Assembly (NCBI GenBank): GCA_963790475.1
Contig: CAWBOS010000010.1
Location: 1,760,001 to 1,824,000, forward strand
Direction of reading: 5' to 3'
DNA: 64,000 nucleotides
DNA from: an uncultured delta proteobacterium
GTDB lineage: Bacteria; Desulfobacterota; RBG-13-43-22
Translations under genes and position numbers: made by a program
Shown here: in pieces, positions 2,870 through 38,079 of the stretch
Numbering within the stretch: position 1 is the stretch's first letter
Layout of the letters: every line of letters starts with the position of its first letter
The notes under the pieces: model-generated
What the model saw: only the letters and a program-made list of their open reading frames with translations
What the model was told of the DNA's origin: nothing
The model's database searches: none

Positions 2870-3094
2870 TTTCCTCCTCCTTTCAAAATCCCAATAGGTC
2901 TTTCTACTGATTCAGATTTTATTACAATTTACTAAAATGGGACATCTTCCTTCTACCTGTTAATAAAATGATAGTAAAGAAGATTAAACCACCAATTTGG
3001 CTGGAGTGAACCCGATAGGCGCTGTCTGCCAAGCGTATTATTCAAAACCAATTATAATGAACTTAGGTAGTTACGTTTAGGTGATTTTATATTT

Positions 3095-3154
3095 TATTGA
3101 ATAAGCTGAAACTTCCTGATATTATCCAGAAAACAGTTCAATAATATGTTAGGC
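3095..3154 (+). other. Candidate integron attI site / array start
   Basis: GTTAGGC core at 3148-3154 in AT-rich DNA that does not fold as attC; nearly complementary to the R'' TCCTAAC of the first attC. Confidence 0.5.
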
Positions 3155-3219
3155 GTCCTGTTGGAGGGAACAAGGAAGTGAATGGGGCATGCGAAAATGA
3201 TTATTATAGGGAGAGCGCT

Positions 3220-3654
3220 ATGAACGAATCGAAAGTAGAGAAAAAGGCGTCGGAGCCGTTAGTCGGCAAGGAGCGGGTTCAGATTCTGCTCCACGAATAC
3301 AACGGCCTCCGCAACGAAATCATCCACCGGACGAACAACTTATTCCAGGTTATCGGCGTCGGGGTGATAGTTCTCGGTTGGCTTACGAATAGTCGTGATT
3401 TTGACTGTAAACTTATCATCTCGCTGCTTGTAGGCTTAGTGACACTTGCCTGTCTTCTCTGGTTAATCCATCGCGATATAGACAAGGCCGCGGAAAGATT
3501 GGCAGAGATTGAGGATTATGTGGACAAGGAAACCGGTGAGTGGTATCTGTTGCGGTGGGAGAGGCTGTGGGGCGGACGAAAGACTGGATACTGGTTACGA
3601 GCGCGTCCTTTGCCAGTTCCTCCTCCCAGACCCAAACCGTCAGATGGTGCATGA
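3220..3654 (+). CDS. Integron cassette protein, two-TM membrane hypothetical
   Basis: EYNGLRNEI motif followed by two hydrophobic helices; lies between the GTTAGGC core and an attC. Confidence 0.7.
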   Translation: MNESKVEKKASEPLVGKERVQILLHEYNGLRNEIIHRTNNLFQVIGVGVIVLGWLTNSRDFDCKLIISLLVGLVTLACLLWLIHRDIDKAAERLAEIEDYVDKETGEWYLLRWERLWGGRKTGYWLRARPLPVPPPRPKPSDGA

Positions 3655-3742: not shown

Positions 3743-3803
3743 TCCTAACCAGCGCGTTCAGCGAATCCGCGCCATGCGCTTCTCGCTGACGCCTATGTTA
3801 GGT
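3743..3803 (+). repeat. attC site
   Basis: R'' TCCTAAC, L'' CGTTCAGC, L' GCTGACG, R' GTTAGGT; 61 bp imperfect palindrome with an extra base in L''. Confidence 0.9.
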
Positions 3804-3821: not shown

Positions 3822-4610
3822 GTGCGTCTTGAGATATCGTGTAGCAAATGCTCGGATCAGATCGCCCCCGGTGAATCACGCACCGTTTATTCGCGCATAT
3901 GCTCGGTGTGCAACGACGGAGTCTACGAAATCGAATGTCCGCAGGGGCATCGCACGATAACGGTCCTTCGCACCCCTAAGCATGAGGTACTTTACACCAT
4001 CGGAGCCAATGCCCTTCTAGACGGATATTTCAGAGACGCCATTGCTTCGTTTGCAGGAGCCTTGGAAAGGTATTACGAATTTGCTCTGAGGGTCATCTCA
4101 CGACAAAAGGAGATCGCGCCTGATGCATTGGAGTCTATTTGGAAAGTGATGTCGAGGCAATCAGAAAGGCAATTCGGTGCGTTCATCGTTGTCTGGTTGC
4201 TGGAAACCGGCAAACCGTATACTTCGCTACCGCAAGCACAGATTGATAAGCAAACCACTCTACGAAATGATGTCGTGCATAAAGGGAAGATCCCTACCCT
4301 TAAAGAATGCGTAAAGTATGGTGAGTACGTTTTGGATGTAGTAGCGCCCATCGAGCAGGTGCTACTTGCTAACTACGCCGCAGCACATAAAGACGAGTGT
4401 TTCGCCCACGCCCGGGACGTTAGCAAGGCCAAGTCTTCGCCAATCACTGTGCTAAGTATATTTTCCGTGTTCAATGCTGCACTGCAGAGCGCCCATAAGC
4501 TGGAACCGGCCCTGGCTAGGCTCCGTAAACTTCGGGAGCGTGATGGCTATCCGATCGTTGGGTCAGAGTATTCGAAGAGCCGGGTTGTTACTCATCTAAT
4601 AAAGTCGTGA
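3822..4610 (+). CDS. Integron cassette protein: Zn-ribbon plus HEPN-like domain
   Basis: CSKC, CSVC and CPQGH at the N-terminus; RNDVVH (RxxxxH) motif; flanked by attC sites. Confidence 0.65.
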   Translation: MRLEISCSKCSDQIAPGESRTVYSRICSVCNDGVYEIECPQGHRTITVLRTPKHEVLYTIGANALLDGYFRDAIASFAGALERYYEFALRVISRQKEIAPDALESIWKVMSRQSERQFGAFIVVWLLETGKPYTSLPQAQIDKQTTLRNDVVHKGKIPTLKECVKYGEYVLDVVAPIEQVLLANYAAAHKDECFAHARDVSKAKSSPITVLSIFSVFNAALQSAHKLEPALARLRKLRERDGYPIVGSEYSKSRVVTHLIKS

Positions 4611-4617
4611 CAACATG

Positions 4618-4678
4618 GCCTAACCCATTACTCCAGGGGACGCTCCTATCGTCGCGCCCCTAAGTTCAGGCGTTGCCT
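4618..4678 (+). repeat. attC site
   Basis: R'' GCCTAAC, 5 bp spacer, L'' ACTCCAGG, L' CCTAAGT, 6 bp spacer, GTT. Confidence 0.88.
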
Positions 4679-4807
4679 CTAACGGGTCCATGTCCCGGTC
4701 GGCGCCGCCGCAGCGACACCAACCAGGCCATTGGACACCGATGTCATTCGTTTGCATGGGCCTTCGGCACCGCAAGCTTCGTGCCAGGGGTCAACGCCGC
4801 ATTGGGC
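4672..4807 (+). repeat. ORF-less attC-like unit, copy 1 (ATT core)
   Basis: Aligns with 6381-6515 and 36998-37106; CACCAAC...TTGGAC...cTTCg...GTCAAC...ATTGGGC. Confidence 0.8.
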
Positions 4808-4827: not shown

Positions 4828-5196
4828 ATGGGAGATGCTCAGTTTGAGTTCGTATGGCCAGGGCTACCTGTTGCAATCCCAGGACTAATCATTGTTTTAG
4901 TGTTGCCAGCGTGGCTGATGTGGATTGTCTTTAAGCACATGTCGTTTTCAACTTGGAAGAAGGTGTTTCTGGTACCGGTTTGTTTTATTGGTCCTTTCCT
5001 CGTTACGGCATTATGGCCTTTAGCTCTGAAGGTAAGCGGAATCATCGGGTTCACAGGCCCCGGGGACTACCAACCTCCATATGGTTGGTATGCCCAAGAA
5101 TTGTTTGGCCGTTTCAGCGACTACGTTTGGGCGAGCCTCACAGGCTTGGCAATCTTGGGCTTTCGGGGCCTCGTCAAATCGAAAACCAGGCATTAG
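4828..5196 (+). CDS. Integron cassette membrane hypothetical protein
   Basis: AGGAGG RBS then ATG 4828; about three hydrophobic segments. Confidence 0.65.
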   Translation: MGDAQFEFVWPGLPVAIPGLIIVLVLPAWLMWIVFKHMSFSTWKKVFLVPVCFIGPFLVTALWPLALKVSGIIGFTGPGDYQPPYGWYAQELFGRFSDYVWASLTGLAILGFRGLVKSKTRH

Positions 5197-5225
5197 CCAC
5201 CGGTGGCTGAACTCTATCGTTAGCC
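5180..5225 (+). repeat. Degenerate attC site
   Basis: AAC-CAGGC-ATTAGCCACC/GGTGGCTGAAC-TCTATC-GTTAGCC; right arm canonical, left arm eroded. Confidence 0.6.
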
Positions 5226-5299
5226 CTCAATATGGGTAATGGGAATGCTCTTTAATAATTTAATTGGCACCATATTTGTAGGAGATTAATAATCATGAT

Positions 5300-6326: not shown

Positions 6327-6380
6327 GGTACTTCCAAAGGAAAGATAGGTGGCGACAACATCGTCGTTCGCCGATGCGGG

Positions 6381-6515
6381 GTTGTCCTACCGGGTTCATC
6401 CCCCGGTCGGCACCAGAGCATCTGCACCATCCTGGCATTGGATACCAATATCACTTGTTTGCATGGGTTCTTCGGCCAAAAAAGCTTCGTGCTAAGGGTC
6501 AACGCCGTATTAGCC
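6381..6515 (+). repeat. ORF-less attC-like unit, copy 2 (ATT core)
   Basis: Colinear with 4672-4807; begins at the GTT of a short CGACAAC...GTTGTCC palindrome (6353-6387). Confidence 0.78.
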
Positions 6516-6633: not shown

Positions 6634-6918
6634 ATGCTGTTCATGGTCATTGAACGTTTCAAAGACAACGACATGGTGCCCATCTATCGGCAGGTGCGGG
6701 ATGGATCAAGGCTTCTTCCCGGCGGGTTAAAGTACATCGATAGCTGGGTCGAGCCAAACTTCAGCCGATGCTTTCAGCTCATGGAGTGCGACGACGTTCG
6801 CCTCTTTCAGCAATGGGTGCTCGAATGGCGCGGATTCGGCGTGACCATAGAGATAGTTCCTGTTGTCGGCAGCGCAGATACGCAGGCCGTCGTGGCGCCT
6901 TACCTCGACAAAACGTGA
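6634..6918 (+). CDS. DUF3303 family protein
   Basis: MLFMVIERF...YIDSWVEPNFSRCFQLMECDD...EIVPV; GGAGG RBS. Confidence 0.8.
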   Translation: MLFMVIERFKDNDMVPIYRQVRDGSRLLPGGLKYIDSWVEPNFSRCFQLMECDDVRLFQQWVLEWRGFGVTIEIVPVVGSADTQAVVAPYLDKT

Positions 6919-6991
6919 AACCGGTCGCCGTATTGCTCTCGGCATTGGGTAATGGAAAATCTCTTTAATAATTCAATAGGAATAACCATAT

Positions 6992-8317
6992 ATGAACCCT
7001 ATCTGTATTGTAGACGATGAATCTTTCATCTGTTCCACAGTAGCGAGCATCCTGAAAGACGAGGGGTATCAGGCCATCGTATTTCCTGACGCAGAGAGCT
7101 TCTGGCAGGGGCTCGATACAATGGAGCCCTCTCTCGCCCTGCTGGATATCTGGCTCCCGGGCATAGATGGAATGCAACTCCTGAAAAATCTGCATGGCCG
7201 ATTCCCGGCACTCCCCATTATCATGATGAGCGGACATGCCGGCATCGAGACGGCGGTAGCCGCGATAAAGGCCGGTGCCTACGATTTTCTGGAAAAACCG
7301 CTGCATCTGGAGGTTTTACTCGACAAGGTGAAGTCTGCCCTTAATCATCGATCTTCCGGGGGCGGCGCAACCCTGCCTTCGGATACGAGGCTTGAGATCG
7401 CCAGTGCGGACCTTTTGATGCCTCCCGGCATGGTGGAGGTAGTGAATTCACCCCAACCTCAACGCGCCCTCAGGGGGAATGTTGTCCTTAACGGTATAGG
7501 GCTTATGAGCGGCCGGAACACAGGTATCATCCTGAGTCCCCTGGGAATAGACGAAGGGATCGTCTTTCAAACTCTTGACGGTCAAACCATCCGTGGACAT
7601 ATCACCTCCCTGGGGAATTTTTCCCAAACGGTCTCATCGAAGACCTTCTCTGCCAACTCCACCACCCTGGACAACGGCAGGCAGCGGGTGCGCACGGTTG
7701 AACACCTGATGGCGGCTCTTTCCATGTTCGGCATAACCAACGTGCTCATAAAGGTCGACGACGAAGTACCGAACATTGACGGCTCCGCCAAGGACTTCAG
7801 CGACCTCATAGCACAGGCAGGGATAGAGGAACAGCCAGCCTTCACCAGGGTCGCTGTCATCCGCCAGAAGCTCGGAGTGGGCAGCGAGGAGAGGCAAGAA
7901 AAGCATCTCTATGCGGAGCCCTTTGAAGGGTTTGAAATATCAATGAGGGTTGACTACCCTCCACCCATAGGGGAACAGATTCTCACTTTCAATCCTGAAA
8001 AAGGATCTTTTGCCAATGATATAGCCCCTGCCCGCTCATTCAACACCTTTGAGAATATCGAAATGGCCCAGAAGCTGGGAAAGGTCGGTGGCGGGTATCT
8101 CCATTCCCACATCATCATGTACGACGGCAAGGTCATCAATACGGAACTCCGTTATCCCGACGAATTCGTGCGTCACAAGATATTGGACCTGATCGGAGAC
8201 CTCTACCTCCTCGGTTTCTCCATCAGAGGACGCATTACGGCCAACATGACCTCTCACGGTTACAATCAGGCCCTGGTGGAACGCTTATACCAGGCTATTC
8301 AGAGCAGCTCCAAATGA
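6992..8317 (+). CDS. lpxC: Response-regulator receiver domain fused to UDP-3-O-acyl-GlcNAc deacetylase (REC-LpxC)
   Basis: REC motifs IVDDE, LDIWLP, FLEKP; LpxC motifs TVEHLMAAL, PNIDGSA, IAPARSF, DEFVRHKILDLIGDL. Confidence 0.88.
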   Translation: MNPICIVDDESFICSTVASILKDEGYQAIVFPDAESFWQGLDTMEPSLALLDIWLPGIDGMQLLKNLHGRFPALPIIMMSGHAGIETAVAAIKAGAYDFLEKPLHLEVLLDKVKSALNHRSSGGGATLPSDTRLEIASADLLMPPGMVEVVNSPQPQRALRGNVVLNGIGLMSGRNTGIILSPLGIDEGIVFQTLDGQTIRGHITSLGNFSQTVSSKTFSANSTTLDNGRQRVRTVEHLMAALSMFGITNVLIKVDDEVPNIDGSAKDFSDLIAQAGIEEQPAFTRVAVIRQKLGVGSEERQEKHLYAEPFEGFEISMRVDYPPPIGEQILTFNPEKGSFANDIAPARSFNTFENIEMAQKLGKVGGGYLHSHIIMYDGKVINTELRYPDEFVRHKILDLIGDLYLLGFSIRGRITANMTSHGYNQALVERLYQAIQSSSK

Positions 8318-25893: not shown

Positions 25894-25970
25894 TGGTCGG
25901 GACGACTGGATTTGAACCAGCGGCCCCCTGAACCCCATTCAGGTGCGCTACCAGACTGCGCTACGTCCCG
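25894..25970 (-). tRNA. tRNA-Pro (GGG)
   Basis: CGGGACGTAGCGCAGTCTGGTAGCGCACCTGAATGGGGTTCAGG...GGTTCAAATCC...CCCGACCA; 77 nt cloverleaf with encoded CCA. Confidence 0.97.
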
Positions 25971-36635: not shown

Positions 36636-36997
36636 TTTTCTTCCTTTCCTGGGTAAAGTTTTTTTCGATAAACATACTATTAGTATTAAAAATATTTTTC
36701 AAGATAATCTTCTCTTTTCCATATCCTCACGCCGAGACAATCCTCGGTTTGATCTCAACAGCCGTTTAAAGCCTACCCCCTACCCTCTTTAGCCTCAATC
36801 AATCTAAGCCGCACCTATTTTCTTCGAATCCTCCCCTTGAAAATAAATTGTCAAGCAAATATTTATCTTTTATAATGGGTTACCTTGATTTTGGAAGGTT
36901 TGTCGTCCTATTGAAAGGACAACAACAGCCAATAGCCACTGTTACCTTCCCGAAGGGATACCTTAAGTTGGAGAGTTTTACGGAAACTTCAGAACAA

Positions 36998-37106
36998 CTG
37001 GTTGCCGCCGCCGCAGGCGGCACCAACCAGGCCATTGGACACCGATGTCACTTGCTTGCAGGTCTTCGACCCCAAGCGGCGTGCCACGGGCAACGCCACA
37101 TTAGCC
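36998..37106 (+). repeat. ORF-less attC-like unit, copy 3 (ATT core)
   Basis: CACCAACCAGGCCATTGGACACCGATGTCA is identical to copy 1; ends CAACGCCACATTAGCC. Confidence 0.8.
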
Positions 37107-37121
37107 ATAAAGGATCAGCCT

Positions 37122-37487
37122 ATGCAGTACCTGAAACACATTCTTGAAACTTTAGATATCAAGAACCGGCAAGATTTTCATGACCACATAGCAAAACTCT
37201 CCGCCGCAGTCGCACCACCGGATAGCCCACTCAGCTTGCACACTAGGGCAACTTTGAAGATCTTGGGAAGCGATCGTGAGCCGGGAAGTCTAGTTGTCGG
37301 ACCACCTGTCCTTAAACTTGCGGGTATCATGCAGGGAACATTCCTTGACGCTCAGGAAATCAAAGTCCTTAATACAAAAACAGCACCCATATCACTTTCG
37401 AATATGGGAATTGCCGCCGTTGTACCAGCGTACAAGCTTCATGACCTTCTATATTCCAAGGAATTGAAGCTACAGAGGGGGTTTTAG
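37122..37487 (+). CDS. Cassette hypothetical protein, possibly deleted or chimeric
   Basis: AGGA RBS; lies between attC-like sites; C-terminus NMGIAAVVPA resembles trypsin-like protease tails. Confidence 0.45.
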   Translation: MQYLKHILETLDIKNRQDFHDHIAKLSAAVAPPDSPLSLHTRATLKILGSDREPGSLVVGPPVLKLAGIMQGTFLDAQEIKVLNTKTAPISLSNMGIAAVVPAYKLHDLLYSKELKLQRGF

Positions 37488-37496
37488 GCCATTATC

Positions 37497-37562
37497 GGCC
37501 AACAAGGTGCTGAACCGGATCGTGGCAAAAGGCGGCCACTCCCGCTGAAGCCCATGTTGGCG
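37497..37562 (+). repeat. attC site (somewhat degenerate)
   Basis: GGCCAAC-AAGGT-GCTGAACC...GTGGC/GCCAC...GTTGGCG. Confidence 0.7.
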
Positions 37563-37576
37563 CAAGGAAAGACAGA

Positions 37577-37831
37577 TCAATAGTGGTATCGCAATTGAGC
37601 TATATGAATGGAATCTTCTGACACTTTATAAACGAATCTATGTTCATCTGTGATACGTCGAGACCAATAACCAGAAAGTGCATGTTTGAGCGGCTCCGGT
37701 TTGCCAATACCCTCCAAGGGATTTCTCATGGTCTCTTTAATCATTGTGTTGATGCGGCGAAGGATTTTCCTGTCGGTGCTTTGCCAAAAAAGATAATCTT
37801 CCCAAGCGTGATCAGAAAAAATGACCTTCAC
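37577..37831 (-). CDS. yoeB: Txe/YoeB toxin
   Basis: AWEDYLFWQ, GIGKPEPLKHALSGYWSRRITDEHR, RYHY. Confidence 0.95.
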   Translation of the reverse strand: MKVIFSDHAWEDYLFWQSTDRKILRRINTMIKETMRNPLEGIGKPEPLKHALSGYWSRRITDEHRFVYKVSEDSIHIAQLRYHY

Positions 37832-38079
37832 TCGATCAGCTCCCTTTCAGCGCCTTCGCCTCTTTCAAGCTGGGCAATTGATTCGACCAGCCGTCTGGTA
37901 TTTTTAGGTGATCGCAAAAGGTAGGCAGTTTCTTCAAGGGCCTCATAGTCCTCAAGGGACATAATGATTACAGAATTAGAAGATTTTCGAGTGACGACCA
38001 CCGGGGAATGGTCCCTGCACACTTTTTCCATTGTTTTCGCAAGGTTTTGTCTTGCAGCCGTATAGGTAATTGCGTCCAA
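37828..38079 (-). CDS. yefM: YefM/Phd antitoxin
   Basis: TYTAARQNLA, MSLEDYEALEETAYLLRSPKN; TTG start with GGAGG RBS. Confidence 0.95.
   Translation of the reverse strand: MDAITYTAARQNLAKTMEKVCRDHSPVVVTRKSSNSVIIMSLEDYEALEETAYLLRSPKNTRRLVESIAQLERGEGAERELIE

Follow-up and report, generated by a model that had tools for sequence, protein, structure and literature searches.

A lineage-specific family of gene-less, attC-like elements ending in ATT in cassette arrays of an uncultured delta proteobacterium

Introduction

Each half-site of an integron attC site combines an RYYYAAC-type arm, a spacer of 5-6 nucleotides (nt) and an xTTRRRY-type arm, and sedentary chromosomal integrons are characterized by homogeneous, species-specific attC sites. 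The present study deals with a 64,000-nt stretch of DNA (hereafter the window; GCA_963790475.1, contig CAWBOS010000010.1, positions 1,760,001-1,824,000) from an uncultured delta proteobacterium, whose genome is called G000 below, and with a short, repeated, attC-like element of this stretch that ends in ATT instead of GTT. Frumerie and colleagues describe GTT as the sole sequence that attC and attI have in common, and for the integrase IntI1 a change of the G/C pair in one partner lowered recombination 10^3-10^4 fold, since the base that is exchanged has to pair in the partner, while the same change in both partners restored it (Frumerie et al., 2010, PMC2811028). On this basis, a site changed in this way would be expected to recombine efficiently only with a partner having the same first base. 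A preprint reports that off-target genomic insertion sites keep the G as well, with the consensus GWT, and describes attC clusters (CALIN) and single attC sites (SALIN) lacking integron integrases (bioRxiv 10.1101/2022.09.11.507474). Gene-less cassettes, for which promoters have been reported, are described from oral metagenomes (PMC6557892) and Vibrionaceae superintegrons (bioRxiv 10.1101/2023.11.21.568050). Cassettes without a gene, attC clusters without an integrase and homogeneous attC repeats confined to one lineage are all already known.

Compared with these systems, the element shares with attC sites the imperfect inverted half-sites, the extra base on one arm, the position at cassette boundaries, the orientation relative to genes, an apparent crossover between the first and second bases of the outer triplet and, in most copies compared, a more stable bottom strand; unlike the element, attC sites have a GTT outer triplet and a variable centre and, unlike its core-only copies, a single closed hairpin, and the host of the element has no integrase. 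Like the gene-less cassettes mentioned above, it is cassette-sized, possesses its own recombination site, has no gene and lies inside arrays, but these cassettes carry promoters, whereas the promoters associated with the element are located in separate modules and its cargo is almost nil. With CALIN, SALIN and sedentary-integron repeats, it has in common the short arrays without intI and the homogeneous repeat confined to one lineage; however, the homogeneous element is not the attC of the gene cassettes, which have heterogeneous GTT attC sites of their own, and it is placed between these cassettes or starts the array. Regarding the engineered G-to-N mutants of attC and attI1 (PMC2811028), their double complementary change has a counterpart in the full-length form of the element, in which AAT faces ATT; yet the element is natural, and most of its copies keep AAC, giving a bottom-strand G.T pair, a combination absent from section 13 of that article. 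Narrow literature searches (on integron attC sites, gene-less cassettes and CALIN, none of them aimed at ATT) found no description of a natural ATT family, and the supplementary tables of integron surveys may list such sites. We estimate the probability at about 0.7 that the element is a lineage-specific gene-less integron cassette containing hardly anything besides an attC-type recombination site.

Family and anatomy of the element

The three copies present in the window are homologous far beyond chance (nhmmer E-values of 1e-35 to 1e-49), and a profile built from them retrieves 12 copies in G000 at E<=4.4e-9, distributed over eight loci on four contigs and lying four times in pairs 0.8-2.4 kb apart. 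A sequence-only covariance model (R1) detected the element, with 1 to 16 matches per genome, in 19 of 20 further members of this GTDB family, but not in 20 other families of the phylum, represented by one genome each. Including G000, the element is thus present in 20 of the 21 genomes of the GTDB order, whose members resemble sulfate reducers, with about 150 model matches, the tallies for family and order being identical because the order contains only one family. Across 69 sequence sources, R1 returned 81 matches, of which 65 are distinct. An exact 18-mer scan of 185,579 species genomes gave 42 loci, 34 of them with a true copy; submitter labels for these 34 are delta-proteobacterial or Thermodesulfobacteriota, except for one 'Pseudomonadota' and one 'Gammaproteobacteria' metagenome-assembled genome, and the remaining eight loci, in other phyla, are chance matches without the element. 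Plasmid and phage collections contain zero copies. In Rfam 15, which has no attC family, the only match of the window at the gathering threshold is a tRNA, and the best E-values under relaxed thresholds are 2.2-7.3.

The counts given below refer to a set of 118 distinct copies, unless an earlier set of 64 is mentioned. The 3' end, readable in 106 of the 118, is ATT in 88 copies and GTT in only five; the other 13 comprise three ATT displaced by a 1-nt insertion, three ATC, and one each of AAT, ATA, GCT, TTT, ATG, AGT and TGG. The base A is hence the rule for the last base of this family, where every canonical attC has G, and what the initial annotation had read from three copies applies to most of the family. 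In the cores, the inner triplet reads AAC in 84 of 96 cases, and the S1 arms of full-length copies (see below) have AAT in 24 of 26. The attC combination of an outer GTT with an inner AAC is thus not the usual one here, the outer triplet being mostly ATT.

All copies have in common a core of 104-111 nt, to which two 5' modules, S1 and S2, are optionally added. On the gene strand, the core opens with a 5' hairpin (GGCGCCGCC and GGCGGCACC around a loop). Two half-sites follow, the left one being CACCAAC, 6 nt, ATTGGAC and the right one GGGTCAAC, 5 nt (GCCGC), ATTRRRY, and between them sit two conserved hairpins, a small one (GACA, 4 nt, TGTC) and then a longer one with a CTTCG-type apex. The left arm has one extra base. 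As in the L-boxes of attC, TTG-G-AC pairs with GTCAA, one G being left out (51-55 Watson-Crick out of 57-60 cells for each of the five pairs). The motifs listed by the initial annotation, i.e., CACCAAC (CACCATC in copy 2), TTGGAY with G(T)CAA, a CTTCG apex and ATTRGSC ends, can all be seen in the alignments. Similarity among copies ends directly after ATT, and the next four bases follow a loose cassette-start pattern (GGGC, AGCC, AGGC etc.).

The full-length form, about a quarter of the copies, adds a 5' arm, (CGCC)AAT GCGGC GTTG. Its S1 arm AATGCGGCGTTG complements the 3' tail CAACGCCGCATT, and over 16 copies this 12-bp outer stem has 174 of 192 positions in Watson-Crick pairs and eight in G.T; in four of the 16, GCGGC has become GTGGC together with GCCGC becoming GCCAC, a compensated change. 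S2, moreover, complements the left half-site imperfectly, so that the fold of a full-length copy is a three-way junction. Most full-length copies begin GTTGG(C/T)GC directly after unrelated sequence. By upstream class, 26 copies carry S1 and S2, 21 carry S2 only, in at least six (by strict match) the core lies directly behind a promoter module, 56 are preceded by other sequence, including diverged promoter leaders and canonical attC sites, five are truncated at the 5' end and four, with short flanks, are unclassifiable. In one sequence source (L019), about 1130-1230 nt downstream of its element copy, S1 lies alone, with a canonical attC before it and unrelated sequence after it; S1 can exist as a separate piece.

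The element has two boundaries at crossover points and its own attC-type recombination site, and it contains no gene. About 3 nt separate the cassette start from the inner repeat, leaving nearly no cargo. A coding function was considered, as an ATG in S2 opens a frame running through the element and, at copy 1, in phase with the next gene; it was rejected because core lengths differ by 1-2 nt at several places and cover all residues modulo 3. Together with the attC sites neighbouring the copies, this agrees with the proposal of an attC-like unit in cassette arrays that has no open reading frame (ORF).

Crossover point and cassette boundaries

The element occupies cassette boundaries, with the presumed crossover after the first base of its outer triplet. 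That A/TT is a real crossover point, as had been proposed from the cassette behind copy 3, is supported by the inner repeat of the next cassette, the divergence observed in a congener and the compensated AAT/ATT stem. For the first of these, the exact 7-mer made of the four bases after TT plus AAC was sought downstream of the 43 copies with ATT or GTT ends; it was present in 11, versus 3.3 expected with the bases of other copies on the same sequence, and several of these 11 matches lie in a clear canonical attC ending in GTT that is itself followed by another element copy. With one mismatch allowed, the test is uninformative (33/43 vs 26.7 expected). Regarding the second, the congener G004 has a locus orthologous to that of copy 3, which can be aligned through the gene upstream, module 2 and the element itself but diverges immediately behind ATT; in G004, the toxin-antitoxin pair recurs only after roughly 9 kb of different sequence. 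At two other places of G000, promoter module 2 is found without the element, and its conserved part then stops exactly at GTT. The element is therefore a separable unit, joined on the left at G/TT and on the right at A/TT. At the locus of copies 1 and 2, only a flanking acyl-CoA dehydrogenase gene is shared with relatives, so that no empty-site comparison can be made there.

Gene content just after ATT differs in nearly every copy. The idea of a locked, non-excisable spacer, one of those put forward by the initial annotation, is a poor fit because this content changes in nearly every copy and also between two congeners. It may also be asked whether the family is a dead relic, in which a founder attC acquired an inactivating G-to-A change and was spread passively by whole-segment duplication in genomes having no integrase. 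Indeed, most host genomes have no intI, the loss for IntI1 after a base change in one partner is large (10^3-10^4 fold; PMC2811028), and several copies are truncated or decayed, 12 of the 118 being without a readable 3' end. Whole-segment duplication nevertheless fails to explain the spread, because both flanks differ in nearly every copy. Against a relic are also the different content after ATT at orthologous loci of two congeners, the bases after ATT, which retain the pattern of a cassette start and agree with the inner repeat of the cassette that follows, and the AAT/ATT pair of full-length copies, which is a compensated change and not a lone lesion. We consider this explanation quite improbable.

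Folding, strand preference and promoter modules

That each window copy folds like an attC site, as had been claimed, was not borne out: none gives a single hairpin at minimum free energy, the bottom-strand DNA folds having z-scores of -0.9 for copy 1, -0.2 for copy 2 and -3.4 for copy 3, in which the 5' hairpin forms alone. With near-zero cargo, the cassette start adjoins the inner repeat and pairs with it as the 5' hairpin, leaving the outer ATT without a partner. A single closed structure is found only for the longer full-length form, one copy of which reaches, with DNA parameters, -68.9 kcal/mol (z -9.1) on the bottom strand vs -54.1 kcal/mol (z -4.7) on the top strand. With the same parameters, 27 of 30 copies fold more stably on the bottom strand than on the top strand.

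The pairs at the crossover site are in line with this strand preference. At the cleavage site of core copies, the top strand has C opposite A in 48 of 55 cases, which is a G.T wobble on the bottom strand, as the initial annotation had deduced from the window copies, and three positions further out C is opposite A in 30 of 53. In full-length copies, the cleavage pair is a compensated A-T (AAT with ATT). In the other helices, the gene strand has about twice as many C.A mismatches as G.T, whereas a structure acting at the transcript level should show the reverse. As the copies are related, these counts are suggestive and not independent. An attC-like long-range scheme has 85.9% of its positions paired, versus 25-40% with slid partners, and 13 pairs changed on both sides versus 6.8 in shuffles; a scheme of local hairpins has 86.6% paired and nine pairs changed on both sides. 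The covariation score of either scheme exceeds all 500 shuffles, and neither is proven because variation is scarce. RNAalifold, applied to a first alignment of 12 copies, gave no usable consensus on either strand.

Two types of promoter modules accompany the arrays. Module 1 is about 105 nt long, with a conserved leader and a sigma-70-like promoter site (-35 at 3097-3102, a 17-nt spacer, a TG-extended -10 at 3120-3125, TATTAT); it is present in eight copies in G000 and 13 distinct copies in the genome plus loci, and relatives carry more. Its conserved end is GTT or TTT, then TTRRRY-like bases, a ribosome-binding site and a gene in six of the eight copies, the triplet end being absent in two. 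Module 1 looks like a platform without integrase that combines a promoter with a candidate docking site of the attI type. Module 2, which relatives carry too, has a promoter-like site with 11 of 12 consensus bases (-35 at 36848-36853, TTGTCA; 17 nt; -10 at 36871-36876, TATAAT) and a leader of about 125 nt, the last ~22 nt of which resemble the end of module 1. A consensus scan detected no sigma-70-like site inside 4672-4807, 6381-6515 or 37001-37106.

These modules bring up the possibility of a structured RNA leader, which would be transcribed from them to form the 5' untranslated region of the next gene and would influence the stability, processing or translation of that gene, the likeness to attC being secondary. 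The element indeed always has the orientation of the next gene, whose start codon lies 18-90 nt past its end in six of the nine other G000 copies, and to the at least six copies lying directly behind a sigma-70-like module the earlier set of 64 adds four with a promoter module upstream of the full-length form. The well-paired local hairpins with their nine two-sided changes and a centre more conserved than attC would need point in the same direction. However, no Rfam family was retrieved at gathering or relaxed thresholds, the mismatches of the transcribed strand are C.A and not G.U, and the non-transcribed strand is more stable in 27 of 30 copies. Moreover, the boundaries coincide with integron crossover points, and many copies are found mid-array behind a canonical attC, without any promoter module. 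An RNA leader is therefore, in our opinion, unlikely.

Integrase, mechanism and points against a cassette

Several observations weigh against a recombining gene-less cassette. The host integrase was looked for, as the initial annotation had advised, and none was found in G000, where the best match to TIGR02249 scores 105 bits against a cut-off of 265 and falls in two pieces that skip the family-specific insertion. In the family, intI is complete in only 6 of 21 genomes, with fragments in three more, and no contig with intI holds a copy of the element, many assemblies being fragmented. Core-only copies do not form a single closed attC hairpin at minimum free energy, copies 1 and 2 remaining at shuffle level, and in full-length copies the extra base (a T) is on the 3' arm, opposite to core copies. 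The central region is ~80-90% conserved across four genera, far above what an attC centre needs, which leaves room for another or an added function. The copies are mutually related, so that the counts overstate independent events. The public sequencing runs listed for the stretch include no RNA run; in three DNA runs of one study, neither an excised circle nor an empty joint nor a bridging contig was found, their short contigs carrying no weight either way. Finally, the left boundary is less clean than the right one: in 30 cores without S2, the preceding triplet is GTT in 10, ATT in five and other in 15, a scatter partly due to poor alignment of the 5' hairpin.

The copies with ATT before the core are L124, L139, L150, L034 and L022; such a triplet would be the expected trace of recombination between two ATT sites. 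Around the 11 intI loci examined, module 1 is near one (in the genome G009) and near none of the other 10, and the element is near none. No canonical attC was found on either side of the G009 integrase with a strict regular expression, which says little.

G000 has 25 tyrosine recombinase segment matches, including sets of two or three adjacent genes (Table 1); one set is 2 kb from a truncated element copy at C10:827885-827976. These matches and tandem sets would be compatible with a miniature transposable element, or with a double-stranded target of another, Xer-like tyrosine recombinase, as would a multi-copy intergenic unit of about 110-190 bp, the 12-16 bp inverted repeats near the ends of full-length copies and half-sites that each consist of inverted arms around a 5-6 bp spacer. 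On the other hand, the inverted repeats do not reach the left extremity, target-site duplications were not seen, insertions are located at the G/TT of attC sites and of promoter modules, the asymmetry between the strands points to a single-stranded substrate, and plasmid and phage collections hold no copy. We hence judge an element of this kind very improbable.

The best reading of these data is that of a gene-less cassette with an altered crossover base that may be still, or was recently, active in recombination. An integron integrase acting in trans would cleave the folded bottom strand between AA and T. In core-type copies, which have AAC, the cleavage pair of the element's own fold would then be a G.T wobble, a C coming from a canonical GTT partner would still pair perfectly, and the T of the element would meet the G of the partner as a wobble. 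The element could thereby exchange with ordinary sites as well as with its own kind, exchange between two ATT sites being predicted to be good, and the core wobble could explain why ATT units are found at many different GTT junctions. An altered-specificity integrase, also suggested by the initial annotation, may likewise be involved.

A tentative extension, which we regard as rather doubtful, would join these features into a natural second 'compatibility class' of integron sites, having A/T for G/C at the position that matches partners, with free mutual exchange, one favoured direction with GTT sites through the core G.T wobble, super-cassettes and private docking sites. If true, pairs of elements would bracket multi-gene blocks moving as super-cassettes, and an element behind a promoter module would be a private docking site, i.e., a substitute for attI, giving many small chromosomal platforms without integrase.

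The loci of the window

The features of the window, together with related ones elsewhere in G000, are given in Table 1. The first array consists, in order, of module 1, cassette 1, cassette 2, copy 1, the gene for a protein of 122 amino acids (aa), a remnant hairpin, a DUF4238 gene, copy 2 and DUF3303; the second of module 2, copy 3, a cassette (121-aa gene plus canonical attC) and the reversed YoeB and Phd/YefM pair. The attC of cassette 1 folds on the bottom strand as one hairpin closed by both repeats (-18 kcal/mol, z -4.6), and its inner repeat matches the cassette start TTAGGC at 6/7 bases; likewise, the attC at 37497-37562 forms one closed hairpin on the bottom strand (z -3.25), with an inner repeat matching the start TTAGCC at 6/7. 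At copy 1, the crossover bases are G4672 and T4673 on the left and A4801 and T4802 on the right, the cassette proper being 4673-4801; the right-hand crossover is at A6509/TT in copy 2, with TTAGCCG following, and at A37100/TT in copy 3, with TTAGCCA following. In copy 2, the S1 arm is paired with the 3' tail.

Regarding the initial annotation, its coordinates hold for copy 1 (4672-4807) and for copy 2 (6381-6515), and the start it gave for copy 3 (36998) is 3 nt early, the boundary being at about 37001. Copy 1 does begin at the GTT (4672-4674) of a preceding attC, the weak site of cassette 2 (z -0.97); copy 2, said to begin in the same way, is preceded by the degenerate S1 at 6349-6380, a module of the family itself and not a foreign attC. 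A ribosome-binding site and a gene had been noted behind each copy: GGAGG precedes the ATG at 4828 behind copy 1 and an ATG follows copy 3 at 37122, whereas behind copy 2 the gene is 120 nt away, at 6634. That annotation lacked the full-length AAT/ATT form, the modules with promoters and the extent of the family (12 copies in G000, presence in 20/21 genomes). A predominance of GTT ends, a lack of attC arrays around the copies or a known Rfam family, any of which had been named as speaking against it, was not found.

Table 1. Coordinates of the elements, cassettes, promoter modules and recombinase gene sets (window positions; positions with a C prefix refer to contigs of G000)
Feature	Position	Strand	Remarks
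Promoter module type 1	3049-3150	+	G3148/TT end; cassette 1 follows, starting TTAGGCG
Cassette 1 ORF	3178-3654		
Canonical attC of cassette 1	3743-3803	+	inner TCCTAAC 3743-3749, outer GTTAGGT 3797-3803
Cassette 2 HEPN-like ORF	3822-4610		Pfam match
Weak or degenerate attC of cassette 2	4618-4678	+	inner GCCTAAC 4618-4624; fold z -0.97
Copy 1 of the ATT element	4672-4807	+	form S2 + core; 103.9 bits (covariance model R1)
122-aa ORF	4828-5196	+	no Pfam family; cassette starting TTGGGCG directly after copy 1
Copy 2 of the ATT element	6349-6515	+	full-length form; degenerate S1 6349-6380, then S2 + core 6381-6509; 80 bits
DUF3303 ORF	6634-6918	+	first gene past copy 2
Promoter module type 2	36839-37003	+	conserved block ends G37001/TT
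Copy 3 of the ATT element	37001-37106	+	core only; directly behind promoter module 2; 84 bits
121-aa ORF	37122-37487	+	no Pfam family; in cassette behind copy 3
Canonical attC of cassette behind copy 3	37497-37562	+	inner GGCCAAC 37497-37503, outer GTTGGCG 37556-37562
YoeB toxin + Phd/YefM antitoxin pair	37577-38079	-	next array unit
Module 1, other G000 copies	C10:48778, C12:1291571, C15:61663, C10:1550442, C10:2004373, C13:116465, C13:53903		
Module 2, other G000 copy	C12:1523894-1524059		
Module 2, other G000 copy	C10:142170-142336	-	
Tyrosine-recombinase gene sets	C10:824457-826020; C13:39964-41528; C13:166296-167859		

Genes beside the other G000 copies encode a nitroreductase, ParD-like and Phd/YefM antitoxins, DUF3786 and proteins without a family, and the cargo adjoining the copies is typical for chromosomal cassettes. 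At the stop codon of the 122-aa gene, a small hairpin (5190-5232), in which a TTAGCC resembling a cassette start is paired with GGCTGAA and then followed by a 6-nt spacer and GTTAGCC, is laid out like S1 and may be an attC remnant. A 35-nt direct repeat of 86% identity (5233-5267 and 6946-6980), located behind the first genes after copies 1 and 2, may be the trace of a local duplication; it was also considered as the far end of a larger mobile unit, which was rejected because the repeat has just two copies in the genome. A loose scan for attC-type motifs upstream of copy 1 returned 145 matches, mostly chance, and was discarded. Elsewhere in the window, an ORF at 6992-8317 combines a response-regulator receiver domain and an entire LpxC deacetylase domain in one fusion, and the sole Rfam match is a tRNA gene at 25897-25970 on the minus strand.

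Conclusion

The G of GTT has been treated as the fixed point of integron recombination, and a natural family has replaced that base. In this ATT family, pairing has been retained or compensated, and the end of the element is still where cassette content turns over. It thus suggests that natural integron sites can change the base thought to fix their recombination partners. Attention is also drawn to an unusual arrangement, namely many small platforms that combine a promoter with a putative docking site and have no integrase. If the proposed mechanism is true, integron specificity would evolve in nature along the path shown in the laboratory, and the element would provide a ready-made orthogonal site for synthetic cassette shuffling.

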